Assembly (NCBI GenBank): GCA_964521805.1
Contig: CAZFSE010000039.1
Location: 1-17,261 of the forward strand
Length of the DNA: 17,261 nucleotides
Reading direction: 5' to 3'
DNA from: an uncultured Verrucomicrobiota bacterium
Lineage (GTDB): Bacteria; Verrucomicrobiota; Kiritimatiellia; CAIQIC01; GWF2-57-35
Shown here: piece by piece, positions 5 through 15,105 of the stretch
How the letters are laid out: the number at the start of each line of letters is the position of its first letter
Numbering within the stretch: the stretch's first letter is position 1
Position numbers and translations under genes: made by a program
Notes under the pieces: model-generated
The model's input: only the letters and a program-made list of their open reading frames with translations
What the model was told of the DNA's origin: nothing
Databases searched by the model: none

Positions 5-670
5 TTAGGGTTTTTCCGGATAGGCTAGCAGGGCCATTCGGCGCTTCAACGCGCCGACAAAGGCGCTCAGCTCCGCCACGGTGAGTGGCTCAATCATATA
101 ATCAGGAATCTCCGTGATTGTGACGGAGTCCAGCAGGAGGGATATCATGGCGGGATCGAGACCCCCGTCCTTCTGCCTGGCCTCCTCAAAAAATGACTCG
201 ATGCGCAAGCCCTCCTTTTCCAGGAAGTACAGGTCAACCAGATCCTTTAGTTCGCCCCGGCTGATTAACGTGGTGATCTTGTTCCTCATGATTTCCTGCA
301 AGGTGTCAACCCGGATTTCCTCGAAGCAAGGTTTCTCCGCATCAATCTGAGGGCTTGCGTCCAGCACCACGTCAATAATTTCTGTGAACGGCTCTCTTGA
401 AATCCGATATCGCCGGAAGGTGGGCGAATCGCGCAACAACTCCAATGCGGCTCCCATTTGGCGGGCACAGAGGCGAATGACGCCATCCACCTCAACCCAG
501 TCGAGTTGCTGGGTCGTGAACAAATCGAGGTCGTACGAACGCCTGTGATCCAGATAGAACAGCCCCAGCGCGCTTCCTCCGGTCAGAAAAAAGCGCTTTT
601 CATGCGCAAAAAAGGCCTTCAGAAACTCCCTCTTAAGGGGCGTGATGGCTCTAGATTTTTCCCAGTTCAT
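5..670 (-). CDS. Nucleotidyltransferase, AbiEii/AbiGii toxin family (type IV TA toxin-like). The longest ORF extends to 751, but the Met at 670 is preferred.
   Basis: The translation contains FFLTGGSALGLFYLDHRRSYDLDLF, which matches the N-terminal GG[ST]AL...R.S.D[IL]D nucleotidyltransferase motif of the AbiEii family (established knowledge). The ATG at 670 overlaps the stop of the upstream small ORF with a frame offset, the typical arrangement of a coupled two-gene module. G+C is visibly lower than in neighbouring genes. Confidence 0.65.
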   Translation of the reverse strand: MNWEKSRAITPLKREFLKAFFAHEKRFFLTGGSALGLFYLDHRRSYDLDLFTTQQLDWVEVDGVIRLCARQMGAALELLRDSPTFRRYRISREPFTEIIDVVLDASPQIDAEKPCFEEIRVDTLQEIMRNKITTLISRGELKDLVDLYFLEKEGLRIESFFEEARQKDGGLDPAMISLLLDSVTITEIPDYMIEPLTVAELSAFVGALKRRMALLAYPEKP

Positions 671-938
671 GCCAGGTCCTGAACAGATATTCCCATAGAG
701 GCCGTGCGGGTCCGAGCCAGCGCTTGATCCCGTCAAACTCCCGATACACATCGGGTGGCTGTAAAAAGAACCAGACTTCCGAGGGCGTTAACTCTCTCAT
801 AAGCCAGGCGATCAGGCGGTGCCGCTCAACGCCTGCCGTGGAAGACAGCCGCTGGCGGATGTCCGCCACGGTCCACCGGCGGTCCCAGCAGATATACGGG
901 ACGGTGTCCTCCGACCATTTGGCTGTTTCAGGGCTCAT
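651..938 (-). CDS. Small protein (95 aa), the putative cognate antitoxin or regulator partner of the AbiEii-like gene
   Basis: The ORF sits immediately upstream of, and overlaps by about 20 nt, the nucleotidyltransferase gene on the same strand. A GGAGA Shine-Dalgarno-like sequence lies 4 nt before the ATG at 938. No recognisable motif in the protein. Partner status is inferred from gene arrangement only. Confidence 0.45.
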   Translation of the reverse strand: MSPETAKWSEDTVPYICWDRRWTVADIRQRLSSTAGVERHRLIAWLMRELTPSEVWFFLQPPDVYREFDGIKRWLGPARPLWEYLFRTWHELGKI

Positions 939-2737: not shown

Positions 2738-3655
2738 TTAATCACCACTGTGCAAGGCGGGGCGGAGGGCGCGCTGGACGTCTTTCTGGAAGGAGGGTTT
2801 GTTAAAATGCTTCCAGGCCTTTTTAAACTCGGCGAGATGGCTGGCTCGCTCTTTCCGAAGCTGGCGGAGAAGCTTCCGGGGGGGGATGAATTTTTGGCGG
2901 CGGAGAAGGCCGCACCAGACATCGCGGTCGTGGATGCGGCCCAGGGCGGCCTGCATGCGCTTAAGTCGCTCGCCGAGTTCGGGGACGGGCCCGCCCAGCC
3001 CTTCGCCAAAGTAGTCGCACAGGTAGCGGGCCTTGCGAATGGCCCGGCGCAGGTGGTGTGCCTCCTCGGGCTCATAGCGCTGGCAGAGGGCATGGCGTTC
3101 GCGCACGCGGCTCAATGCCTTGCGAATGGCCTTGGTTTCCAGCACGGAAAGATCGCCCTTGGCCTCGTGGAAGGCGGCGGGAATTTCCGCCTGCAACAGG
3201 CGGTTCATCCCGGCCTTCCAGTTCCGGCAGGCCGCCGAGGCCAGCAATCGTTTCATGCGTTCTTTTTGCCGGAACTTGAGGGACTCCTGTCTTCGCAGAA
3301 AGGCGGCCCAGGCGGCCGGCGTTTTGCCGGGATTCTCCGGGGCGTTGCTGTTCAGGAAGAGCATCCATACATCCAAATCCCGCGCCGGTCCGAGGGCCTT
3401 GCCCAGGCGGCGGACGGCCGTTTCCATGCGGGCGGCGGAGGTGGCGGTCAGGGGCGTGCGGAAGGTGCGCAACAGCAGGGCCAGGCGGCGGATGGCGACG
3501 CGCAGGTCGTGCAGGGGCATGCTCTGCCCCTGAAGCACGCCGGGCTCGCTGGCCAGCGCCCGGCGGTATTCCTGGGCGATCAGGCGGCGCGCCTCGCACA
3601 GCGCGTGCCGCCGCCCGGCGGCCGGCTTCGTTTTGCTGGGGCGGCGCGTGCTCAT
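2738..3655 (-). CDS. CHAD-domain protein (conserved histidine alpha-helical domain, polyphosphate-associated)
   Basis: The protein is arginine-rich and all-helical-looking, with an HDLRVAIRRLALLLRTF segment matching the CHAD H-x-LR[VI]-x-[LI]RRLR pattern. Its ATG overlaps the ppk stop codon (ATGA), which implies translational coupling to ppk. The opposite-strand ORF 2711..3796 is Gly/Ala-rich and is rejected as a shadow frame. Confidence 0.7.
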   Translation of the reverse strand: MSTRRPSKTKPAAGRRHALCEARRLIAQEYRRALASEPGVLQGQSMPLHDLRVAIRRLALLLRTFRTPLTATSAARMETAVRRLGKALGPARDLDVWMLFLNSNAPENPGKTPAAWAAFLRRQESLKFRQKERMKRLLASAACRNWKAGMNRLLQAEIPAAFHEAKGDLSVLETKAIRKALSRVRERHALCQRYEPEEAHHLRRAIRKARYLCDYFGEGLGGPVPELGERLKRMQAALGRIHDRDVWCGLLRRQKFIPPRKLLRQLRKERASHLAEFKKAWKHFNKPSFQKDVQRALRPALHSGD

Positions 3656-5766
3656 GACTGGGCGGAGGGCCGCTCCGGCTCAAAGACGTTCATCTCCGCT
3701 TTGCGCGCGGCGCGGGAGGCCTCACAAGCTTGCTGGTACAGCGTTTCCTGGCATCGCTGGGCTTTTTTCTTGCCGGATGGCTTGACGCGGACATAGGCGC
3801 CATCGGCCTGCAGTCGGCGGGCCTTGGCGCTGTCCTTGAAGCAGGCTTCCAAAATGCCGACCAGCTTGCGCGCGCAGGCAGGATCCTCGACGGGAATCAG
3901 CAGTTCAATGCGCCGGTCCAGATTGCGGGGCATCCAGTCCGCGCTGGACATGAAGGTGAGCGACTCGCCGCCATTGTGGAAATGGAAGATGCGGCTGTGC
4001 TCGAGGAAGCGGTCCACGATGCTGATGACGGAGATGTTCTCGCTGACACCGGGCACGCCGGGGCAGAGACAGCAGACGCCCCGGATATTGAGCTGGATCT
4101 GGACGCCGGCCTGGGAGGCCCGGTAGAGGGCCTGAATGAGGGCGGGATCGGCCAGCGAGTTCATCTTGGCCAGGATGCGGGCCTCCTGTCCCTGCTGTTT
4201 GCGGGCGATTTCATTTTCAATCAGCTCCAGCACGCGGTTGCGCAGGCCGATGGGGGCGGACTCGATTTTCCGGTATTTGATGGGCTGGGAGTAGCCGGTG
4301 ATGGTGTTGAAGAAGGCGGAGGCGTCCGCGCCGTAATCGGGGTGGCAGGTCATGTAGCTGATGTCGGTATACAGCTTGGCGGTGCGCTCGTTGTAGTTGC
4401 CGGTGCCGAAATGAATGTAGCGGCGGATGCCGGCGGATTCCCGGCGGACGATGATGCAGATCTTGGCATGGGTCTTGAGGCCCTTCAGCCCGTAGATCAC
4501 CTGCACGCCGGCGTGTTCCAGCGCGGTGGCCCAGCTGATGTTGCGGGCCTCGTCAAAGCGCGCCTTGAGTTCGACGACGACGGTGACGTGCTTGCCCTTG
4601 TCGGCCGCGCGGGCCAGCGCGGCGACGATGGGGCTGTTCTCGCTGGTGCGGTAGAGGATCTGCTTGATGGCCAGCACCTCGGGATCGTCGGCGGCCTCTT
4701 CGAGGAAGCGGACGATGGGGTCGAAGCTCTCATACGGATGGCACAGGAGCAGATCCTGGCGGCTGAGCAATTCAAAAAGGGATTCGCCCGCGACGGTCTG
4801 CGGGGGCTCCTGCGGGGGCCAGGGGTCGAGCTTGAGGGTCTCGAAGCCGGTGGTGGAGGCCAGCCGGAAGCAGGCCGAGAGGTCCACGAGGCCGGGGATG
4901 GGGTAGACATCCTCGTCGCGCAGGTTCAGCATGGTCTTGAGATAGGTCAGGGTGGTGGGGGAAATGTTCTGGCTGATCTCCAGGCGGACACAGCCGCTGA
5001 GTTTGCGCTCGGTCAGCACTTCCTTCATCTTGTCGAGGAGGTCGCCGGCGAGATCTTCGCGGACGCTCATACCGGCGTTGCGGGTGATGCGGAAGGGCAC
5101 ACATTCGGCGACGGGTTCGCCGGGGAAGAGCTGGCTGGCGAAGGCGGAAACCAGATCCTCAACCGGGATGTAGTGATAACCGGATTCCGAGGGGACCGTG
5201 ACAAAACGCGCCAGGCCCCGCGGAATGGCGATGACCGCGAACCGTGGGGTCTGGTCGCTTTCGCGCGGATTCTTCAGGCGGACGAAGAGATTGAGACCCA
5301 GCCCCGGCAGGATGGGGAAGGGGTCGTCCAGGTCAATGGACATGGGGGTGATGACCGGAAAAATCTCATGCTCGAAGAGCAATTGCACGTACATGTCCTG
5401 CTGGGCGGCCAGGTCGCCCATGGCCAGCCGGCGGAGGCCGGCGGAGGCCAGTTTCGGCTCAAGCTCCTTGAGCAAACAGGCCTGCTGATCGGCGACCATT
5501 TGATGCGTGATGCGGCTGATTTCGGCCAGCTGTTCGGCGGGCGTCAGCCCGGATGGGTCGCGGACTTCCTTGCCCTGTTCGAGCAGTTGCTGAAGCCCGC
5601 CCACGCGGACCATGAAAAACTCGTCGAGGTTGGAGGCCGTGATGGCCAGAAATTTCAGGCGCTCCAGCAGGGGGAGGGTGGCATCGAAGGCTTCCTCCAG
5701 CACGCGCCGGTTGAAGGCCAGCCAGCTGAGTTCGCGGTTGATGAAGGGGGCCTGTTCAGTACGCAT
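3652..5766 (-). CDS. ppk: Polyphosphate kinase 1 (PPK1). The start is chosen at MRTEQAPFINRELSWL; the longest ORF start at 5832 would overlap ppx.
   Basis: N-terminal FINRELSWLAFNRRVLEEA...LERLKFLAI..SNLDEFFMVRV is a PPK1 N-domain signature. The size (about 700 aa) and the C-terminal PLD-like regions are consistent with PPK1. The gene lies 10 nt downstream of the ppx stop. Confidence 0.9.
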   Translation of the reverse strand: MRTEQAPFINRELSWLAFNRRVLEEAFDATLPLLERLKFLAITASNLDEFFMVRVGGLQQLLEQGKEVRDPSGLTPAEQLAEISRITHQMVADQQACLLKELEPKLASAGLRRLAMGDLAAQQDMYVQLLFEHEIFPVITPMSIDLDDPFPILPGLGLNLFVRLKNPRESDQTPRFAVIAIPRGLARFVTVPSESGYHYIPVEDLVSAFASQLFPGEPVAECVPFRITRNAGMSVREDLAGDLLDKMKEVLTERKLSGCVRLEISQNISPTTLTYLKTMLNLRDEDVYPIPGLVDLSACFRLASTTGFETLKLDPWPPQEPPQTVAGESLFELLSRQDLLLCHPYESFDPIVRFLEEAADDPEVLAIKQILYRTSENSPIVAALARAADKGKHVTVVVELKARFDEARNISWATALEHAGVQVIYGLKGLKTHAKICIIVRRESAGIRRYIHFGTGNYNERTAKLYTDISYMTCHPDYGADASAFFNTITGYSQPIKYRKIESAPIGLRNRVLELIENEIARKQQGQEARILAKMNSLADPALIQALYRASQAGVQIQLNIRGVCCLCPGVPGVSENISVISIVDRFLEHSRIFHFHNGGESLTFMSSADWMPRNLDRRIELLIPVEDPACARKLVGILEACFKDSAKARRLQADGAYVRVKPSGKKKAQRCQETLYQQACEASRAARKAEMNVFEPERPSAQS

Positions 5767-7363
5767 GGGGCACCTGGTCGGCTTCCGCCCGGAATTCCTG
5801 CAGGACCACGGGCAGTCCATAGATCTCCTCAAAGAGATTGCCCTTTTCCTTGACCGCGAGCCGCTCCATGGTCAGATCTTCCACATCCTTGACGGTGATG
5901 AGCAGGCGGTCGGGCTCGCGGGTGAACAGCAGGTGGCGGGTCTGCTGGGTATGGTTGCGGTCGAGGGCATCGGCCACGCGCAGGATGGCCGCCATCTTGG
6001 AGACCACGATGCGCCCGTCCCGGTCCAGCGCGCTGAATTCGGGATGGGTGAGATTGGGCATGGCGCGGCGGTGGTAGCGGGCGGTCAGCGCGATCAGGGT
6101 CATGTCCGCGCGCGTCAGGCCAAAGAGGTCGCTGTTGAGGATCAGATACATCGAATGCTTGTGATGGCTTCGACTGCTGACGTAGCCGCCGGCCTCATGA
6201 ATCAGCGCGGCGGTTTCGAGGAGCAGGCGGTGGCGCTGGTCGAGCTGATGCTCGGCTTTCATCTCGTCGAACAGGGCCAGCGAGACGTCCGCCACATGGC
6301 GCGCATGTTTTTCATCCACATGGTATTTTTGCCCCAGCACCAGGGCGGACTGAATGACCTGCTGGGCGAACGTGGGGCTCCAGTAGCCGAGCAGGGCCAT
6401 TTCCCGGAGCAGGCCATCCCGCAGGCTGGCCTTGGGAATCAGCAGTTGGTCAATTTTGAAGGAGCGGGCGAGGTGGGTGTAAATCAGCAGGGCCGGTCCG
6501 ACGGTTTCGGCCTCTGAATAGGTCAGCTGGTATTTGCTGACCAGTTTTTCAACGGTCAGCGGCAGGAGCTTGTCCACAAAGGCGGTAAAGGTTTTGAGGT
6601 CGAGGCGCGCGGTGGGCGCGGTGGCCCAATCGGCGCAGAGCTGGGCGGCGGCGAATCGCGAATCGCCCGACATGGCGACCAGCACGCCGGGTTTGGCGGG
6701 CGGGAGGTTGCGCTTGAGTTGTGCGATCAGGCGCTGGATATGCTGGCCGAGAATGGAGCGGGCGCGCTCCGGGGGGATGCGCTGGGTCTCCAGGTTTTCG
6801 CGCATGCGCAGGGAGCCCAGGCGGTAGGAATCGGAAAACGTGACGTAGCCATTTTGCACCAGCAACAACTCGGTGCTTCCGCCGCCGGCATCCGCCACCA
6901 GCACATCGGCGTCCTTGAGCGCCGGATCGTTTTCAAGAAGGTTCTGGGCGGCCATATAGGTCAGCCGGTTCTCCTCGGCCTCATCAATGGCGCGGACGTT
7001 GATCTGGGTGGAGACATAGACGCGGTTCAGAAAGGTGTCCCGGTTTTCCGCCTCGCGGACGGAACTGGTGGCGACGGCCTGAATCTGGTCGGGGCGGTTG
7101 ATGCCGTACTCGTCGAGGATGCGCCGAAATCCGCGCAGGATCTCCACGCACTTCTTGATATTTTCCTGCCGGATGCGTCCCTTGGTGAAGGTATCCTTGC
7201 CAAGGTCCAGAGGCCGGCGCACGGTTTCCAGGGTGCGGATGCCCTGCGTTTCGTTGATTTCCGCGATCTCCATGCGGACGGCGGTGGCGCCAATGTCGAT
7301 GACGGCTACCAGGCGGGGCGGAGGCGCGGAGGGTTTGGTGCTGGTTGGAGGAAGGGTGCTCAT
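5756..7363 (-). CDS. ppx: Exopolyphosphatase / guanosine pentaphosphate phosphohydrolase (Ppx/GppA family). The longest ORF extends to 7426, overlapping the ROK gene.
   Basis: An actin-like ATPase fold start, LVAVIDIGATAVRMEIAEI, and a DAGGGSTEL motif are present. The C-terminal HD-like region contains IHEAGGYVSSRSHHKHSMYLI. The internal Met at 7363 (MSTLPP...) leaves a 19-nt gap to the ROK stop and has GGAAAG upstream. Confidence 0.85.
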   Translation of the reverse strand: MSTLPPTSTKPSAPPPRLVAVIDIGATAVRMEIAEINETQGIRTLETVRRPLDLGKDTFTKGRIRQENIKKCVEILRGFRRILDEYGINRPDQIQAVATSSVREAENRDTFLNRVYVSTQINVRAIDEAEENRLTYMAAQNLLENDPALKDADVLVADAGGGSTELLLVQNGYVTFSDSYRLGSLRMRENLETQRIPPERARSILGQHIQRLIAQLKRNLPPAKPGVLVAMSGDSRFAAAQLCADWATAPTARLDLKTFTAFVDKLLPLTVEKLVSKYQLTYSEAETVGPALLIYTHLARSFKIDQLLIPKASLRDGLLREMALLGYWSPTFAQQVIQSALVLGQKYHVDEKHARHVADVSLALFDEMKAEHQLDQRHRLLLETAALIHEAGGYVSSRSHHKHSMYLILNSDLFGLTRADMTLIALTARYHRRAMPNLTHPEFSALDRDGRIVVSKMAAILRVADALDRNHTQQTRHLLFTREPDRLLITVKDVEDLTMERLAVKEKGNLFEEIYGLPVVLQEFRAEADQVPHAY

Positions 7364-7382
7364 GGTGTTCTTTCCGGCGCCC

Positions 7383-8354
7383 TCACCGGCCCGAGGCCAG
7401 CGCCGCCGCGCCCATGACCACGGCATTGTCGCCCAGGCGCGCCGAGGTGACTTTCAGGCCTTTCTGAAAGGCCGGCATGGCCTGGTCCTTGATGGCGGCG
7501 CGCACTTCCTTGAGGAAGAGCGAAGGCATGGCCTCCACCAGTCCGCCGCCGAGAATAATCAGATCGGGAGCGAGCAGATTCACGGCGCCGGAGATGCCGG
7601 CGCCGAGTGTGTACGCCGCCTGGCGGACGATGATCTCCACCGTCTTGTCTCCGGCCCGGATGGATTTGGCCAGCACGCCGCTCTTGATGTCCCGCAGATG
7701 GGTGCCCGCCAGTTTGTACAAGGCGGGCGCTTCGCCCCGGTAGGCGGCCATGGCGGCATCCGCCGAGATGGCCAGCCGGCTGGCGACCGCTTCCAGACAC
7801 CCGCGCTGGCCACAGCCGCAGAGCCGCCCGTTGGGTTGCACCTGGATGTGGCCAATCTCCATGCAGGAGCCCACTTTTCCGCGCAGGAGGTGGCCCTCAT
7901 AGACACAGGCGCCTCCGATTCCTGTTCCTGGAAAGACCCCCAGCAGGCAACGGGCCTCCTGGCCCGCCCCGAAACGGTATTCCCCATACGTCCCGGCATC
8001 CACGTCGTTGGCAATGATGGCGGGACATTTGAACTGCTTCTCCAAGGCGGCTTTGAGGCGCACATGTTTCCACCCAAGATTTGGCGCATGAAGGATGATG
8101 CCCCTGTCCAAGTCCAGCGGCCCGGGGCATCCGATGCCAATGCCCCCCAATTGCCGGGCTGTGATCTGGGCCTCCTGAAGGGCCTCCTCGATCGTCTGAA
8201 CGATGCGATCCATGATGCCGGCGGCGCCATCCTGCCCCCGGGTTCGCGCCCGCCGGGATCCCTTGATCTTGAATTGGCGGTCGAAGACGGTGGCCATCAT
8301 CTTGGTGCCGCCCAGGTCAAAGCCCAGCCAGCAGGTCTTGGATTTTGCGGTCAT
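7383..8354 (-). CDS. ROK-family sugar kinase (glucokinase-like)
   Basis: The N-terminus carries GFDLGGTK (ATP-binding DxGGT). The ROK zinc motif is present as GHIQV...CGCGQRGCLE. There is no N-terminal HTH, so this is the kinase type rather than the repressor type. It is first in a co-directional array with ppx, ppk and the CHAD gene. Confidence 0.8.
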   Translation of the reverse strand: MTAKSKTCWLGFDLGGTKMMATVFDRQFKIKGSRRARTRGQDGAAGIMDRIVQTIEEALQEAQITARQLGGIGIGCPGPLDLDRGIILHAPNLGWKHVRLKAALEKQFKCPAIIANDVDAGTYGEYRFGAGQEARCLLGVFPGTGIGGACVYEGHLLRGKVGSCMEIGHIQVQPNGRLCGCGQRGCLEAVASRLAISADAAMAAYRGEAPALYKLAGTHLRDIKSGVLAKSIRAGDKTVEIIVRQAAYTLGAGISGAVNLLAPDLIILGGGLVEAMPSLFLKEVRAAIKDQAMPAFQKGLKVTSARLGDNAVVMGAAALASGR

Positions 8355-8995: not shown

Positions 8996-9171
8996 GGGAC
9001 CTCCTGAATGCCGCAGTTAACAAAGTCCGGGCATAGTATCTGATTGCCGTGTTTGGCTCAAGTTAGAGTTTTGCAAGGTTTTGCCGCAGAGTTCAGGGGG
9101 TTCCATCTTTCTGCTTGCCGTCAGGGGGGGGACTCGATGAAACTGCGAGCAGGTCGAACAATGTGGCATTC

Positions 9172-10746
9172 ATGTACAGACTTATCTTTTTAAATGGCAA
9201 GCACAAGGGCCGGCGGCTGGTGGTTCATCAGGGTTCCATCCTGATTGGCCGTGATCCGGAATGCCATATCCACCTGGCGGACGACGATGAGGTTTCACGA
9301 CGGCATGCGGTGCTGGAGGAGCGCACGGACGGCATTTATGTCAACGATCCGGGGTCTTTGAACAAGATCCTGGTGAATGACCAGGAGATTCGGGAAGCGC
9401 TCTTGAAGGCCGGCGACATCCTGCAGTTGGGGAAGACGCGCATTCAGTTTCAGGAGGCTGAGCCCTTGCCGCTACAGGAAGAGCGCCGCATCGGGATGAT
9501 TCAGCGGATGACCTTTGCCTCGGTGGCTCTGGTCCTGTTGTTGGAGGCACTTTTCCTGATTGGTCTTTCCGTCTGGCACCAGGAGCAATTTGTGGAAGAA
9601 CGCCCACTGCCGGAGTTGAGTTCCACCTCCGGGGTGGCGGCCGTTTCCGCTGGGGTTGAGAGCAACGTCCTGGAGCTGGCGGACGATCAGGACGCCGACC
9701 TGATGGCGGCGGCGGAACGGCTCAAGCATTTGGAGGAAGATGCCCTTGAACCCGCCCCGCCCGCCGGGCCGGAGACCACCGGGGCGTTGTCATCCGTGTC
9801 GGAGGAACTGCGAAAACTGCGGCAGGACGTGGCGGAGATCCGCGAAAAAGTGCAGGGAATGGCGGTCAGCTCCAATGAGGAGGCCCTGGTCGAGGCGCCG
9901 CCAGAGGAAGATCCTGTCCCGGTGGCCCAGAAGGAGCAGGACGCCCTGGAGGCCCGGGCGCGCCAGATGCTCCAGGAGGCCCAGCTCGACATCCAGCGCA
10001 TGAATTTGATCCAGGCGGACCAGCAGTTGGAGCGCATTCAGATCATGGCGCCGGATTTTCTGCCGGCGTATGTGGAACGGGCCCGCCTGCTGGAGCGCCG
10101 TGGCCTGCTGAAGAAGTCGGGCGAGCAGTGGACCCATGTGATGAACCGGAGCATGGGCACGCCTCTGTACCAGCAGGCCGCCGCGGAGCGCATCCGGATT
10201 TCGCGCCAGGAGATGGTCCAGACGGGGCTGAAGACTTCCGCCCGGTCGGATGACGAGAACGTGCTGGCGAAGCTTCCCCGGCTCATCCGGATCACCGACA
10301 TTGAGCATCAGAAGTTCCCGGGCAACGAGCAGTTCGATGAAATGCGCCTCCTGCGCATTATGGTGAAGGTCAAGCCCGGGGAAAAAGGAATCGTGGGCAA
10401 CGATGTGTATGTGGTGGTGAATTTCTTTGACCGCTCCAAGGAAAGCGGACAAATCAGCCTGTCCGGCGCGGTCGTTCCCAAGGAGGCGCTGACCCTGGAA
10501 GGCCCCCTGGAGGCCGGCGCCCAGCGGACGCTGACCGCCGCCTACATTGTGCCCAAAGGGTTCCGAAAGACCGAGGCCGCGCAACAGGGCGAGGAACGCA
10601 ATTACTTTGGCTATGCCGTGCGGGTGCTTCATCGGGACAGCTTGCAGGACGAAGAGGCCAAGCCGAGGATCTTGCTAAAGGAGCGCATTGAGCCGCCCTC
10701 GTCCAGCCTGCCAGGCCTTCCGGTCAGCCCTCCGCCGGCTTCCTAA
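9172..10746 (+). CDS. FHA-domain membrane protein: N-terminal FHA, one TM helix, an acidic/Ala-Pro-rich coiled-coil region, and a C-terminal uncharacterised beta-rich domain
   Basis: FHA hallmarks (GR...C.I.L....VSRRHA....DG.Y.V.D.GS.N...VN) appear in the first ~100 aa. A hydrophobic segment, MTFASVALVLLLEALFLIGLSVW, follows. The start at ATG 9172 puts the FHA domain about 10 aa from the N-terminus. The upstream TTG/GTG alternatives lack an RBS, so the start is uncertain. Confidence 0.7.
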   Translation: MYRLIFLNGKHKGRRLVVHQGSILIGRDPECHIHLADDDEVSRRHAVLEERTDGIYVNDPGSLNKILVNDQEIREALLKAGDILQLGKTRIQFQEAEPLPLQEERRIGMIQRMTFASVALVLLLEALFLIGLSVWHQEQFVEERPLPELSSTSGVAAVSAGVESNVLELADDQDADLMAAAERLKHLEEDALEPAPPAGPETTGALSSVSEELRKLRQDVAEIREKVQGMAVSSNEEALVEAPPEEDPVPVAQKEQDALEARARQMLQEAQLDIQRMNLIQADQQLERIQIMAPDFLPAYVERARLLERRGLLKKSGEQWTHVMNRSMGTPLYQQAAAERIRISRQEMVQTGLKTSARSDDENVLAKLPRLIRITDIEHQKFPGNEQFDEMRLLRIMVKVKPGEKGIVGNDVYVVVNFFDRSKESGQISLSGAVVPKEALTLEGPLEAGAQRTLTAAYIVPKGFRKTEAAQQGEERNYFGYAVRVLHRDSLQDEEAKPRILLKERIEPPSSSLPGLPVSPPPAS

Positions 10747-11323
10747 ACGAACAGCGCCCAATGGGCGTATGCTGGATGTAGTAGAGCTCGAAATCCGTTT
10801 TTTCCGCCTCTTCCGGTTCAAAGGGCGGAATTTCCTCAAACCGGCGGTCATTTTTCAACACCGCATGGACCTCCTCGAAATAGGGCAGGTGGTCCGTCGC
10901 AAAATGAAGGTCCGCCCCGGGTTTCATGGTGCGAAAGACCGCATCCAGAAAAACGGGATTGAACAACCGGTGGTCGTGGTGGCGCTTTTTGGGCCAGGGG
11001 TCCGGGAAGAAAATGTAGAAGGTGCGGACGGAATTGGGCGGCAGGAGGTAGGCGACCGCGTAGTAGGCGTCCATCCGGAGCAAACGGATGTTGTCCAGGC
11101 CGCGATGGCGGGTCTTGTTGTCCACCTTCCGGATGCGCCGGAGCATCCGGTCAATGCCGAGAAAGTTGGTGTCCCGGTGCGCGGCGGCCCTGGCCAGCAG
11201 AAAGCGGCCCTTCCCACAGCCGACATCCACCTCCAGCGGGCGGGCGTCAAAATACTGCTCCAGCGGAAGGGGCCACAGCCAGTTGTCGGGCACGATCCGC
11301 ACGCTTTCGGTTTTGTTTTGCAT
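10724..11323 (-). CDS. trmB: tRNA (guanine46-N7)-methyltransferase TrmB
   Basis: SAM-binding VDVGCGKGRFL is present, and the TrmB signature FFPDPWPKKRHHDHRLF matches FPDPWxKxRHxKRR. The start is chosen at MQNKTES (11323); the longest ORF to 11635 would run into the divergent mevalonate kinase gene. Confidence 0.85.
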   Translation of the reverse strand: MQNKTESVRIVPDNWLWPLPLEQYFDARPLEVDVGCGKGRFLLARAAAHRDTNFLGIDRMLRRIRKVDNKTRHRGLDNIRLLRMDAYYAVAYLLPPNSVRTFYIFFPDPWPKKRHHDHRLFNPVFLDAVFRTMKPGADLHFATDHLPYFEEVHAVLKNDRRFEEIPPFEPEEAEKTDFELYYIQHTPIGRCSFRKPAEG

Positions 11324-11423
11324 GGCGTTCCGGTCTTTTTGAAGTGACGCAGTGTAAGCGGTGAAATCTGGCGGGTCAACTGTCGGCTGGACTTTATCCA
11401 GGGAAAGCGTAGGCTGATCCCTT

Positions 11424-12428
11424 ATGAAAGCGATTGCTCCAGGCAAATTAATCCTCAGCGGCGAACATGCGGTGGTGTATGGCAAGCCGGCCTTGGTCAC
11501 CGCCATCAACCGGAATGCCCAAGCCATCATTACCCCGGAGGCGGGGGACGCGATTTCCTTTGACCTGCCCGATATCCAGCAGAATGGGTCATTCACCCTG
11601 CGCGCCATCCGCGAGATGGCCAGCCGCGTGGCCAAGAACTACCGCCTGTTTCTGGATGGCGAGCTGGGCATCCGCGAAGTCCTGCACAAGCCGCTCGATT
11701 TGTTTGAGTTTGCCTTTATCACCATCTTGGATGGATTGCACCTGAAAGTGGCCGATGGGCTGAAAATTCAGATGCATTCCAATATCCCCATCGGATGCGG
11801 CATGGGCTCTTCCGCGGCCAGCATCGTGAGCGTCCTGCGGGCGGTCGGCCATTATTTCCGCGTCGAGTTTCGCCCGGACTGGTACTACAAATACAGCCTG
11901 GAGGTGGAAAACCTTCAGCATGGCCATTCCAGCGGGGTGGATTCCTATATTTCCCTGCATGGCGGGTGCGCCCGTTTTCAAAATGGCTCGGCCCAGAAAC
12001 TGCCGCTTCCCCGGGCGCCGATGTTCCTGGTGCAAACTGGCGTGCCGCTGACCACCACCGGCGAGTGTGTCGTTCAGGTGGGCAAAACCTTCGGAAAGAG
12101 CGCCATCTGGGACGATTTTGAGGCTGTCACGCTGGGGTTGGAAAAGGCGCTGGCGCAAAACGATTTGACGGCCATTCAGCAGTGCCTGCGGGAGAACAGC
12201 CGCTTGCTGGCCTCCATCGGCGTGGTCCCGGAACGAGTCCAGGCGTTTGTGGCCGAGGTCGAGCAGTCCGGTGGCGCCGCCAAGGTGTGCGGGGCCGGGG
12301 CCGTGGCGGGCGGCCAAGCTGGCGTGGTGCTGGTGGTGGGCGAGAAGGCCCCGGTGGAAATCTGCAAGAAATATGGGTATGAGCTCATGACGGTCCGTGG
12401 CGAACCTCTGGGCGCCCGAATCGTATAA
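11424..12428 (+). CDS. Mevalonate kinase (GHMP kinase family)
   Basis: N-terminal APGKLILSGEHAVVYG is a classic mevalonate-kinase motif. The GHMP P-loop is PIGCGMGSSAAS. Length is 334 aa. Confidence 0.7.
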   Translation: MKAIAPGKLILSGEHAVVYGKPALVTAINRNAQAIITPEAGDAISFDLPDIQQNGSFTLRAIREMASRVAKNYRLFLDGELGIREVLHKPLDLFEFAFITILDGLHLKVADGLKIQMHSNIPIGCGMGSSAASIVSVLRAVGHYFRVEFRPDWYYKYSLEVENLQHGHSSGVDSYISLHGGCARFQNGSAQKLPLPRAPMFLVQTGVPLTTTGECVVQVGKTFGKSAIWDDFEAVTLGLEKALAQNDLTAIQQCLRENSRLLASIGVVPERVQAFVAEVEQSGGAAKVCGAGAVAGGQAGVVLVVGEKAPVEICKKYGYELMTVRGEPLGARIV

Positions 12429-12442
12429 ACACCGTTTCCCGC

Positions 12443-13375
12443 ATGTCCAAGACCTCCATTCGAGCCTCTGCGCCCGGCAGTCTCATGTTGATGGGCGAGC
12501 ATGCCGTTCTTCATGGCCATCCGTCGCTGGTGTGTGCTGTCAATCGGCGCATGGTCGTGACCCTGTCCTCCCGTTCCGATTCGTTGCTCCATATTCAATC
12601 GGCCCTGGGAGAGTACACAGCGCCCCTGGAGGCGCCGGCCCCTGATCCCCGGTTTCGTTTTGTCCTCGCCGCCCTGGCCCGCCAAAAAGAAGTGCAGGGC
12701 GGGCTTGATCTCGTGATTGAGTCCGAGTTTTCTCACACGGTTGGCCTGGGCTCCTCGGCGGCGGTCACCGTGGCCCTCCAGGCGGCCCTGGACCTGTTCC
12801 TGGGCAAGCCCCTGGATGCGCGCCGGGTGTTTGAGGCCTCCCGAAGCGTGATTCGCGAGGTCCAGGGACTGGGCTCCGGCGCGGATGTCGCGGCCAGCGT
12901 CTATGGCGGCATCGTAGCCTATCGCGCTGATCCGCTGGAGATCGAATCCCTGCTCGCCTCGCATCCCGTCACAGTGATTTATTCAGGCAGTAAAATGCCG
13001 ACCGCCGAGGTGGTGCGGAAGGTTCAGCAACAGCGGGAACAGCGCCCGGAGCTGTTTGATGGCATCTTCAGCCTGATGGGACAGAGCGTCCCGCACGCCG
13101 TAGAGGCCATTCGTGTGGGCGATTGGGCCTCATTCGGCGCCCTGCTCAATCTCAATCAGGGCTTGATGGACGCCCTTGGTGTCAGCAATGCCCGGCTCTC
13201 GGAAATTGTGCACGCACTCCGCTCCGATCCCAACATCCTTGGCGCCAAGATCTCCGGCTCCGGGCTGGGCGATTGCGCCATCGGCCTGGGGGCCTCCGCG
13301 CGGAAGGACTGGCCCTACGAAGTCCTCCCCGTCTCCATCACGAATCGTGGCCTTCTGCAAGACGAACCAGGCTGA
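12443..13375 (+). CDS. Second GHMP kinase, mevalonate-kinase-like (could be a phosphomevalonate-kinase equivalent or an MK paralogue)
   Basis: N-terminal APGSLMLMGEHAVLHG is present and the GHMP P-loop is VGLGSSAAV. It starts 14 nt after the upstream kinase gene. From memory, bacterial ERG8-type PMKs carry GEYA rather than GEHA at this position, so the PMK assignment is not secure. Confidence 0.55.
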   Translation: MSKTSIRASAPGSLMLMGEHAVLHGHPSLVCAVNRRMVVTLSSRSDSLLHIQSALGEYTAPLEAPAPDPRFRFVLAALARQKEVQGGLDLVIESEFSHTVGLGSSAAVTVALQAALDLFLGKPLDARRVFEASRSVIREVQGLGSGADVAASVYGGIVAYRADPLEIESLLASHPVTVIYSGSKMPTAEVVRKVQQQREQRPELFDGIFSLMGQSVPHAVEAIRVGDWASFGALLNLNQGLMDALGVSNARLSEIVHALRSDPNILGAKISGSGLGDCAIGLGASARKDWPYEVLPVSITNRGLLQDEPG

Positions 13376-13602: not shown

Positions 13603-13716
13603 TGCGAAGCGGAGCGCGATTTTTTCCGCTATGCCGGTTTGACCCAGCGGGAGGTCGCTGGCACATTAGGCGTCGGTAGTGGGGCGGCGATCAGTCATCA
13701 GATGAGAAAGCTGAGC
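13603..13716 (+). pseudogene. Fragment resembling the C-terminal region 4 (HTH) of an ECF sigma-70 family factor, with no N-terminal part present
   Basis: The translation ERDFFRYAGLTQREVAGTLGVGSGAAISHQMRKL fits the ECF sigma region 4.2 pattern (ER.VF.LRY..GL...EIA..LG...GTVKSRL.RAR). An in-frame TGA lies immediately upstream at 13600-13602, and only about 225 nt separates it from the preceding gene. The fragment is in frame with the downstream amidinotransferase ORF, probably by chance. Confidence 0.3.
13618..13645. repeat. Left copy of an imperfect direct repeat flanking the low-G+C islet (gattttttccgctatgccggtttgacc)
   Basis: It pairs with 15106-15133, gattttctttccgcaatcggtttcaatg, sharing the blocks gatttt / ccgc / ggttt in the same order. 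Similarity is roughly 65-70% with small gaps, and could be chance. Confidence 0.25.
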
Positions 13717-13890
13717 TCGTGTATTGAGAACGACCAGTCGCTGAAACGATCCGTCAAGGATATTGAACGTCGGATGGATTGGCAGAGGGGAAAGAAGGAA
13801 AACAATATGCTAAGTACTAAACTCAGGGTGCCCCCAATACCGCCGCCGCCGAAAAGAAAACCTGCCGGTCTGCGCCGGCTTAGTTCAACC

Positions 13891-13896
13891 AGGAGA
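13891..13896 (+). promoter_or_regulatory. Shine-Dalgarno sequence AGGAGA, 6 nt upstream of the amidinotransferase ATG
   Basis: aggagagatgtcATG, read directly from the sequence. Confidence 0.6.
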
Positions 13897-13902
13897 GATG
13901 TC

Positions 13903-15039
13903 ATGAAAAATGTGATCGTAGTTTTATACACGTTGCTAGCGTTCGGATGGTTTCCAGTTTCCACCCGATCAGCAAACGCAGTGGAACCTTCTGTTTGTGT
14001 AGATTACGAATATGGCGATCTGAAGGAGGTGATTGTCGGCCTGCCGTATGGCATGTCGCCTTCGCTGGAAGCGAAATGGTTTGCCGACGCGCTCAAAGTA
14101 CTGCCAAAAGATGAAGCGGATTACGCCCGGCAGACAGCGGGGATGCTCTGGACGGAGATGATCAATCCCGAAACGGAGAAAAGCGAGACGATGATGCTGG
14201 AAGAGGAAAATCAGGCTTTCATCAAAATTTTAAAGTCTCTGGGCGTCAAGATTTACCGTCCGACGGAGATTACCGTCGACTTTATCAGAAAACATTACGG
14301 ATCGGATGTGCTGCTCAATGGTTTCAGTCAGGACTTTCCTCGCGACAACATGGCCGTGATCGGCAACAACGTCATCGAGTTCAATTTGCGGACACCGATT
14401 CGCAAGGTGGATATATCCGGATTCCGGGATATTCTGTCTGAAAAATGTTTCGACTCGACGGTCAAGTGGTTTTCCATGCCGCACACGGAACTTCTTAAGC
14501 CCGCTCGTGCAGATTCACCGTTTCTGGAAGGCGGCGACGTCATCGTGCTGGGTAGAACCGTTTTAGTCGGCAATACAGAAAATCCCAGCGTAGGATCCAA
14601 TGAGGCCGGCTACAAGTGGCTCAAAAACATTTTAGGCGATCAATATAAGGTGAAACGCGTTCGGCTTGTAGAAAGCGTGCTACATCTGGATTGCGTGCTT
14701 TCCGTGCCGCGCAGTGGGCTCGCCATCATCTGCGAAGAAGCATTCATCGACGGCTTGCCCGAAGAGATCAAGGACTGGGACCTGATCAGAGTGAGCTTGG
14801 AAGATGTCAAGCGACTGGCCGTCAACGGCCTTCCCGTCAATTCCAAGAACTACATTTTGTCTTATAACCGGCACAATGACAACCGCTACATCCAGGCCGA
14901 GCTCGAAAAGCGGGACATCAGAGTCCACCGCGTGTTTTTCGGAACCCACAATGGCCAGGGGGGATCGTTGCGCTGTGCGACCCAGCCTCTTAAGCGAACG
15001 GTCAAGATGACGAAAGCGCGCGAAAGTCAAAGAAAGTGA
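13903..15039 (+). CDS. Amidinotransferase of the AGAT/StrB1 family (L-arginine:glycine/inosamine amidinotransferase-like, guanidino-group-modifying enzyme superfamily) with a predicted N-terminal Sec signal peptide
   Basis: Block-wise resemblance to glycine amidinotransferase: DLKEVIVG corresponds to the NEWDPLEEVIVG block, and ILKSLGVKIYRP to ILKTEGVTVRRP. FPRDNMAVIGNNVIEF corresponds to MPRDILIVVGNEIIEA. The catalytic His and Cys blocks LHLDCV and GQGGSLRCATQ correspond to MHIDATF and GGGFHCWTCD. The N-terminus MKNVIVVLYTLLAFGWFPVSTRSANA-VEP has a K-containing n-region, a hydrophobic core and an AXA site. A strong RBS is present. The gene lies in the low-G+C segment. Confidence 0.75.
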   Translation: MKNVIVVLYTLLAFGWFPVSTRSANAVEPSVCVDYEYGDLKEVIVGLPYGMSPSLEAKWFADALKVLPKDEADYARQTAGMLWTEMINPETEKSETMMLEEENQAFIKILKSLGVKIYRPTEITVDFIRKHYGSDVLLNGFSQDFPRDNMAVIGNNVIEFNLRTPIRKVDISGFRDILSEKCFDSTVKWFSMPHTELLKPARADSPFLEGGDVIVLGRTVLVGNTENPSVGSNEAGYKWLKNILGDQYKVKRVRLVESVLHLDCVLSVPRSGLAIICEEAFIDGLPEEIKDWDLIRVSLEDVKRLAVNGLPVNSKNYILSYNRHNDNRYIQAELEKRDIRVHRVFFGTHNGQGGSLRCATQPLKRTVKMTKARESQRK

Positions 15040-15105
15040 AGACAAGGGGTGGGGGGGCACTCATTAGAGGATTCGGTAAAGAAATAGAACGTGTTCATAA
15101 AGCTG

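Follow-up and report, generated by a model that had tools for sequence, protein, structure and literature searches.

We analysed a window of 17,261 nucleotides from an uncultured bacterium of the Kiritimatiellia (contig CAZFSE010000039.1), and in particular a complete gene on its forward strand (positions 13903-15039) that encodes a protein of 378 residues, identical to a protein of the public collections (P0001). Our results suggest that this protein belongs to an uncharacterised sister clade of the amidinotransferases, endowed with catalytic loops of the hydrolase type, and that it is made as a precursor whose Sec signal should carry a domain of about 350 residues to the periplasm. They also indicate that the gene was acquired horizontally as a 1.16-kb single-gene cassette and is maintained by purifying selection. 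Enzymes that resemble amidinotransferases are regarded as biosynthetic enzymes of the cytoplasm. The best overall reading would be that of a periplasmic, stand-alone enzyme acting on guanidino groups, and more likely a hydrolase than a transferase, a reading over which our confidence is evenly divided. What is known here is the fold and the catalytic machinery; what is new is an unstudied clade, its unusual location and its striking mobility.

A preliminary description of this DNA had called the product an amidinotransferase of the AGAT/StrB1 family. The open reading frame and the conserved blocks that it quoted are indeed all present (VIVG at residues 43-46, PRD...GN..IE at 146-159, LHLD at 260-263 and GGSLRCAT at 353-360). 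The family assignment stands only in part: the protein is a member of the pentein superfamily and its nearest characterised relatives are StrB1, AGAT, HsvA and SxtG, but it is not a canonical member of their family, with which it shares only 22-24% identity and from which it departs by an LEGGD loop and an Arg-Cys pair. A search of solved proteins with the single sequence retrieved SxtG (4e-13), HsvA (6e-12) and StrB1 (1.5e-11). We also used two profiles, A1 for the core family and A2 for a sample of the wider clade (24-43% identity for all members but one). Their E-values, A1 then A2, were 3.6e-24 and 7e-66 for HsvA, 3e-23 and 1.6e-57 for SxtG, 5e-19 and 6.5e-55 for StrB1, 4e-18 and 8e-57 for AGAT, 1e-8 and 5e-21 for arginine deiminase, and 1.6e-4 and 2.6e-17 for dimethylarginine dimethylaminohydrolase (DDAH). 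The profiles thus favour the amidinotransferases, and the closer homology to arginine deiminase or DDAH that the preliminary description had named as an objection did not appear.

None of the curated NCBIfam models reaches its cut-off, either for our protein or for the wider clade. With only 18-26 bits, where the cut-offs lie at 340-489, the scores separate the protein from arginine deiminase (TIGR01078, 21.8 bits versus 489; NF002381, 25.6 versus 414) and from DDAH (NF045660, 18.3 versus 340), and a second DDAH model, NF045658, gives 14.8 bits versus 450. The best match of the wider clade to a DDAH model (4e-16) is still under the cut-off, and the Pfam matches of our protein to ADI and DDAH_eukar are weak. 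A search of the PDB with a 28-residue query covering the C-terminal motif found nothing. Public annotations of the family conflict, ranging over 'inosamine-phosphate amidinotransferase', 'arginine deiminase-related', 'dimethylarginine dimethylaminohydrolase' and 'hypothetical'.

The predicted fold is the pentein alpha/beta-propeller of the transferase type, and Cys358, His261, Asp148 and Asp263 occupy the conserved amidinotransferase positions (Table 1). The same Cys, His and two Asp positions are found in the four solved amidinotransferases, StrB1 (1bwd), human AGAT (1jdw), HsvA (5wpi) and SxtG (6u1r), which also resemble our protein in length and in an N-terminal strand motif; in SxtG the catalytic residues are D209, D131, H258 and C362 (PMC12371840). 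The catalytic set is complete, and the core family alignment shows no variation in it; His261 is invariant in both A1 and A2, and Asp263 in A1 and nearly so in A2. However, all four solved enzymes combine an FDAA[DN] loop, which supplies an Asp to the triad, with an F-H-C motif, whereas our protein has L-R-C, with an Arg that is invariant in the core family and nearly so in A2, and LEGGD in place of FDAA[DN], so that the triad acid would be a Glu (Glu209). These two traits occur together in nearly all of the 56 representatives sampled from the wider clade, and only one, P0369, has the canonical pair FDAAN and His-Cys. We therefore define the clade by an [LI]EGGD loop and an R-C nucleophile motif on a transferase-like fold, both of which are found in our protein. 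A Cys-His-Glu type triad and an [ED]GGD loop are points of likeness with arginine deiminase and DDAH, which are described as hydrolases with a Cys-His-Glu triad (PMC11659421). As the Glu triad acid and the Arg-Cys pair differ from those of the canonical transferases, transferase chemistry cannot be taken for granted in this protein.

Table 1. Features of the gene and its surroundings (positions in the window; A1, core-family profile; A2, wider-clade profile; HMM, hidden Markov model)
Feature	Position	Strand	Basis or remark
Degenerate remnant of an IS200-like (Y1) transposase gene (helix-turn-helix part, C-terminal)	13606..13809	+	BLASTP
Horizontally shared DNA cassette, 1.16 kb, single gene	13887..15045	+	Homology with other genomes begins and stops here
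Shine-Dalgarno AGGAGA	13891..13896	+	6 nt spacing to ATG; GGAG[AG]GA then ATG kept at other loci
Exported pentein-superfamily enzyme (predicted), complete coding sequence (378 residues + stop)	13903..15039	+	Open reading frame call
Sec-type signal peptide, residues 1-26, predicted cleavage after A-N-A	13903..13980	+	Heuristics (hydrophobicity; -3/-1 rule)
Mature catalytic domain, residues 27-378, predicted alpha/beta-propeller pentein fold	13981..15036	+	
Asp148 in PRD motif, predicted guanidinium binder = AGAT Asp170	14344..14346	+	HMM alignment; invariant in A1 and A2
Glu209-Gly-Gly-Asp212 of LEGGD loop; Glu209 at triad-acid position = AGAT Asp254	14527..14538	+	HMM alignment
His261-Leu-Asp263, predicted catalytic His and second guanidinium-binding Asp = AGAT His303 and Asp305	14683..14691	+	HMM alignment
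Arg357-Cys358; Cys358 predicted nucleophile = AGAT Cys407, after clade-specific Arg	14971..14976	+	HMM alignment

The second issue is the location of the enzyme. The N-terminus reads MKNVIVVLYTLLAFGWFPVSTRSANA, followed by VEP at the predicted cleavage point, and has the n-, h- and c-region layout of a Sec signal: Lys2 lies in the n-region, the hydrophobic core spans residues 4-19 (highest 12-residue Kyte-Doolittle mean, 2.56), and small residues occupy positions -3 and -1 of the A-N-A at residues 24-26. Signal peptides were called by heuristics (hydrophobicity, the -3/-1 rule and the lipobox) together with comparison of homologues, the same heuristic being applied to every locus, and on both grounds the signal peptide with an AXA site that had been proposed is well founded. 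The AlphaFold2 model (mean predicted local distance difference test score, pLDDT, 87.6; predicted template-modelling score 0.85) is consistent with such a precursor, residues 1-25 being disordered, with pLDDT below 50 at residues 1-3 and 14-25, and a confident fold beginning near residue 31. The architecture is kept in diverged copies though their sequences differ: small residues at -3 and -1 are retained in about 20 of them, and the signal region, where nonsynonymous divergence (dN) exceeds that of the mature part by a factor of 3-5, retains its hydrophobicity.

An equivalent signal is common among homologues, in line with the survey that had been proposed. By the heuristic, a Sec or lipobox signal is found in 41 of 50 other, mostly diderm, bacterial loci, in two of the seven loci from monoderm-type bacteria and in none of the 12 archaeal ones. 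Clear lipoboxes include LALAGC, LSSC and LAFSGC; homologues devoid of a signal come from the archaea and from several bacterial groups, including Clostridium and Acetobacterium. About one third of the representatives of the wider clade in A2 have export signals, at least seven of which are of the twin-arginine translocation (Tat) type. Relatives with Tat signals, about 31% identical to our protein, are found in Vibrio maritimus (L092/L093) and Photobacterium jeanii (L094), where a divergent LysR regulator gene lies upstream of the enzyme gene and dedicated tat genes (tatA-tatC-tatA/B) directly downstream. P. jeanii also has a second Tat-signal paralogue, with its own LysR regulator and a gene for a Phenol_MetA_deg outer-membrane channel. 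Since Sec and lipobox signals are distributed according to the cell envelope, and since Tat signals recur in the wider clade and these Vibrionaceae loci associate the enzyme with tat genes, export appears to be a recurrent and independently realised property of the clade rather than an accident of annotation.

Where is this enzyme found, and in what company? A scan of one genome per GTDB species gave 79 loci, with hosts that are almost all strict anaerobes from methanogenic habitats. The bacterial hosts belong to the Desulfobacterota, Synergistota, Verrucomicrobiota, Kiritimatiellia, Armatimonadota, Bacteroidota, Chloroflexota, Bacillota and Actinomycetota; the archaeal ones are methanogens (Methanomethylophilaceae, Methanoculleus, Methanospirillum, Methanoregula and Methanogenium) with copies about 60-70% identical. 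The family is small, with 99 clusters (at 50% identity) at E <= 1e-30 and 530 at E <= 1e-10 among 1.84 billion representatives. Among the cultured carriers of the clade are Desulfonatronum zhilinae, whose protein P0038 is 84% identical, Clostridium sporogenes, Methanospirillum lacunae, Methanoculleus nereidis, V. maritimus and P. jeanii.

No recurrent partner gene emerged from a clustering of neighbours at 92 loci or from a Pfam census of 65 independent contexts, so that operon partners can be set aside. The 116 flanking genes of this census match 135 Pfam families, the commonest being Response_reg (7) and HisKA (5), and two-component regulators are the only mild excess. Neither ornithine carbamoyltransferase, nor carbamate kinase, nor an antiporter is among the recurrent neighbour clusters or the 25 top Pfam families of the 65 contexts, which sets the family apart from arginine deiminase and leads us to reject an arginine deiminase pathway context. 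The absence of a biosynthetic cluster, noted earlier for the window, thus extends to the 65 contexts, and the enzyme stands alone, with no dedicated partner genes. Together with the signals, this census gives good support to the proposal that it would act alone outside the cytoplasm. At three loci, arginase-family genes lie near clade members, namely L008 (4330-5298), L092 (12226-13080) and L095, the last of which (3591-5891; 10183-11241) also has a carbonic anhydrase gene and a gene of the agmatine-deiminase family PAD_porph. These neighbours hint at a possible catabolism of guanidino compounds.

How would such an enzyme work? We propose that Asp148 and Asp263 would hold the guanidinium group of the substrate while Cys358 attacks its central carbon, giving a covalent S-amidino (thiouronium) intermediate with release of the first product; His261, oriented by Glu209, would serve as general acid/base. 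Water would then resolve the intermediate, which would make the protein a periplasmic guanidino-group hydrolase, of the deiminase or amidinohydrolase type, processing an external guanidino compound rather than performing a biosynthetic transfer. The substrate is expected to be L-arginine or a close arginine-like guanidino acid, because the invariant Arg167 lies 19 residues past the PRD aspartate, a spacing that matches the Arg by which arginine deiminase and DDAH bind the alpha-carboxylate.

We place hydrolysis slightly above an even chance. It is favoured because the motifs derived in the transferases are missing and the gene is alone, never in a biosynthetic cluster; furthermore, relatives adjoin LysR regulators and have arginase-family genes and, in one case, an agmatine-deiminase-family gene nearby, which suggests an inducible catabolism. 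Amidino transfer to an amine appears distinctly less probable, and some further outcome improbable. Transfer is nevertheless a serious alternative, because every close structural relative is a transferase. In a genuine periplasmic amidinotransferase, Cys358 would take the amidino group from external L-arginine, ornithine would be released and an amine acceptor would be guanidinylated, yielding guanidino compounds outside the cytoplasm; polyamines, lysine, ornithine, ethanolamine and amines bound to the envelope are candidate acceptors. The best matches in sequence and fold are all amidinotransferases, the top profile match being the polyamine amidinotransferase HsvA, and the N-terminal EYGxLxEVIVG and VGSNxxGxxW blocks resemble transferase motifs. 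Such chemistry needs neither cofactor nor ATP and would thus be feasible in the periplasm. However, our protein lacks both FDAA[DN] and His-Cys, which are common to the four solved transferases and P0369, biosynthetic neighbours occur in none of the 65 contexts, the LysR and arginase-family neighbours of relatives are typical of catabolism, and nothing in the data points to an acceptor. We consider this alternative doubtful.

Several points weigh against the periplasmic hydrolase and must be set beside these arguments. With transferases as its nearest relatives overall, transfer by our protein is quite possible. The choice of Glu or Asp at the triad position is not decisive, as bovine DDAH-1 shows LDGGD where our protein has LEGGD. 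Human DDAH-1 likewise uses Asp at this position. The proposed equivalence of Arg167 to the carboxylate-binding Arg is based on spacing and profile coordinates. The carboxylate ligands of AGAT, Arg322 and Ser355, align to Ala280 and Val302 and are not conserved, nor are they in HsvA or SxtG. The Vibrionaceae contexts come from relatives with only about 31% identity to our protein. Finally, an ammonia-releasing hydrolase has no obvious selective value in ammonia-rich digesters, and the spread across phyla would be left unexplained.

A more tentative view, to which we give less credence still, is that the EGGD/Arg-Cys clade performs a reaction undescribed for penteins outside the cytoplasm, either amidino transfer onto environmental or envelope amines or hydrolysis of a non-arginine guanidino compound, and that this activity is the trait which, in anaerobic digesters, spreads as a single gene from one bacterial phylum to another and also to methanogenic archaea. 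For hydrolysis of this kind, possible substrates, abundant in waste streams, are creatine, guanidinoacetate, methylguanidines and biguanide-type xenobiotics.

Guanidino-group hydrolases that work outside the cytoplasm have precedents in other branches of the penteins. The peptidylarginine deiminase of Porphyromonas is secreted; its structure (5ak7) is a distant fold match to our protein. A published list of Tat substrates includes Agu2A' of Pseudomonas aeruginosa PA14 (PMC6085387). By contrast, the 2-nitroimidazole nitrohydrolase NnhA (9azg) is cytoplasmic, limited to the Actinomycetota, of a different branch and only 11% identical to our protein. Literature searches on exported amidinotransferase-like proteins and on COG1834 gave nothing relevant, and we found no account of an exported enzyme from the amidinotransferase branch. 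Canonical amidinotransferases are cytoplasmic or mitochondrial and belong to biosynthetic pathways, whereas our protein is predicted to be exported from a stand-alone mobile gene. The delineation of a sister clade in which export is common, by Sec, lipoprotein or Tat signals, and of one sub-lineage that appears to have spread as a bare gene among the Desulfobacterota, the Synergistota and bacteria of the Planctomycetes-Verrucomicrobia-Chlamydiae (PVC) group, may point to an unrecognised extracytoplasmic step of guanidino-compound turnover in methanogenic communities. Its Glu/Arg catalytic loops, against the Asp/His loops of the canonical enzymes, also make the clade a natural test of hydrolysis versus amidino transfer in this fold, and the cultured carriers make this question directly testable.

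The case for export depends on the start codon. The preliminary description held the N-terminus to be the only possible one: it is correct that codon 1 is followed by no other ATG before the VIVG block, but a GTG at codon 27 (13981) and an in-frame ATG at 13807, in a reading frame that stays open 5' of 13903, had been overlooked. If either were the true start, or if the hydrophobic segment were an uncleaved anchor, the enzyme would be cytoplasmic or tethered to the membrane. The GTG falls exactly at the predicted cleavage site, and some homologues, from archaea and several bacterial groups, lack a signal. However, codon 27 has no Shine-Dalgarno sequence, and close homologues have Gly, Ala, Trp or Thr at its position and do not use it as a start. 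Among the candidate starts, only the ATG at 13903, with its Shine-Dalgarno sequence, lies inside the DNA conserved among genomes. The retention of small -3 and -1 residues in the diverged copies, and the lipoboxes or Tat motifs of other lineages, also argue for a true signal. Even an uncleaved anchor would put the domain outside the membrane, because the charge distribution predicts an N-in, C-out orientation. We thus find a cytoplasmic or anchored enzyme quite unlikely.

The mobility of the gene is the third issue. A foreign composition had been noted earlier and is borne out, with a G+C content of 51.0% and a G+C content at third codon positions (GC3) of 62%, versus 57-67% and 72-89% for the neighbours. 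So is the single-gene islet, as the DNA shared with other genomes is confined to the gene itself, with 16 nt before its ATG and 6 nt after its stop codon. Over this cassette the nucleotide identity is 84-92% to loci of Geobacteraceae, Deltaproteobacteria ADurb.Bin151 (three copies), Smithella, Smithellaceae and Syntrophaceae as well as of Synergistaceae, Aminobacteriaceae and Aminivibrio, and 82% to an Opitutales bin. In subsets of these loci the common DNA extends further, by up to about 160 nt on the upstream side and about 140 nt on the downstream side; the DNA flanking the window cassette is unrelated to that of the matching loci, and the genes that flank it elsewhere are mutually unrelated (DUF169, GNAT, SurA, ImpB, isochorismatase and PIN). 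The ROK kinase of the host, by comparison, has a best relative only 71% identical (Lentisphaerae and Verrucomicrobia bins, among other phyla), so that the host is probably a diderm of the PVC type from a thinly sampled lineage. The identity of the cassette across phyla, together with the contrast in G+C, argues for a foreign origin, and the cassette crossed between phyla long after the phyla themselves had split. The location of the gene is not an assembly artefact, since an independent 1631-bp assembly (L001) spans both junctions of the cassette with 100% identity, which rules out a chimera.

Could the gene be a decaying or non-catalytic passenger of mobile DNA, functionless in this host? It adjoins a transposase remnant, it has lost the promoter/leader region of the Desulfobacterota copies, and a Rhodopirellula bin has a fragment of the gene only. 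Nevertheless its frame is intact, none of the invariant residues is missing, it has retained its Shine-Dalgarno sequence and there is a promoter-like site at 13779-13806, for which the evidence is weak. In the mature domain, comparison with 16 other copies gave ratios of nonsynonymous to synonymous divergence (dN/dS) of 0.11-0.18 (dS 0.24-0.79), with 0.14 against the closest copy, so that the gene is probably functional wherever it lands. A passenger is thus very unlikely. The fragment in the Rhodopirellula bin (L087, 6001-6366) covers residues 122-243 at 87% identity and is apparently a pseudogene.

The lost upstream region is a stretch of about 150 nt common to the Desulfobacterota copies (L010, 6860-7000; L014, L057, L018 and L023). 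It carries a promoter-like TTGCAA-17-TATAAA and, just before the Shine-Dalgarno sequence, a possible stem GGGAGRRG/CYYTTTYCC, in which three pairs show compensatory changes among five sequences; it has no Rfam match. At gathering thresholds Rfam gave no match in the window or in eight related loci, and relaxed thresholds added only chance-level ones; a riboswitch or leader RNA was discarded on this ground.

The transposase remnant sits in the 527-bp gap 5' of our gene, in a frame broken by an upstream stop. It matches residues 262-314 of an intact 317-residue Y1_Tnp protein (30% identity, E 5e-7) of a Geobacteraceae bin (L010), where the transposase gene precedes the homologue and its product matches Y1_Tnp and, under the Pfam cut-off, Bac_DnaA_C. 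An adjacent Y1 transposase is found only at this Geobacteraceae locus (L010, L011 and L013 being one place), at L035, where a related transposase gene precedes the homologue, and, as a remnant, in the window. With unrelated cassette flanks and a Y1 transposase at few loci only, we could not retain a defined mobile vehicle; integron attC sites were not searched for.

Low-complexity runs are present at both junctions: upstream (CCG)4 at 13847-13858, which encodes PPPP in the open upstream frame, and GGGGTGGGGGGG at 15046-15057, right after the end of the shared DNA. The three copies of ADurb.Bin151 are diverged and about 88-89% identical to the window protein (L014 and L057 on contig MWDG01000030, and L015); two of its copies lie about 13 kb apart with about 1 kb of common upstream DNA that includes a DUF169 gene. 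In a Smithellaceae bin (L023) two tRNA genes, at 5316-5388 (-) and 5493-5576 (+), are found about 430 nt upstream of the cassette; mobile DNA typically inserts at such genes.

The gene content of the window is otherwise that of an ordinary chromosome. Our gene is flanked by mevalonate-kinase-like genes upstream and by an NfeD-like gene and a flotillin gene downstream; the window also holds an AbiEii toxin gene, a sodium:solute symporter gene, a polyphosphate cluster and genes for the ROK kinase, a cyclophilin, an FHA protein and TrmB. The target protein has no PADLOC match, and a role in anti-phage defence was rejected on this ground. The AbiEii gene, at the edge of the window (5-751, -), encodes a toxin of the nucleotidyltransferase type; the adjoining 95-residue open reading frame (651-938, -) has no PADLOC match that would mark it as the antitoxin. 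The polyphosphate cluster (2738-7426, -) consists of genes for a CHAD-domain protein, polyphosphate kinase 1 (PPK1) and a Ppx/GppA phosphatase, and its neighbouring open reading frames overlap at 3652-3655 and 5756-5832. The longest TrmB open reading frame (10724-11635, -) overlaps the FHA gene (9115-10746, +) by 23 nt and the first kinase gene (11424-12428, +) by about 210 nt; the true start is probably further downstream, because the methyltransferase domain begins only at residue 131. The two mevalonate-kinase-like genes are tandem GHMP kinase genes (11424-13375, +), the second of which exceeds the TIGR00549 cut-off (183 bits versus 163), and the pair suggests that the mevalonate pathway is present in this PVC-type host.

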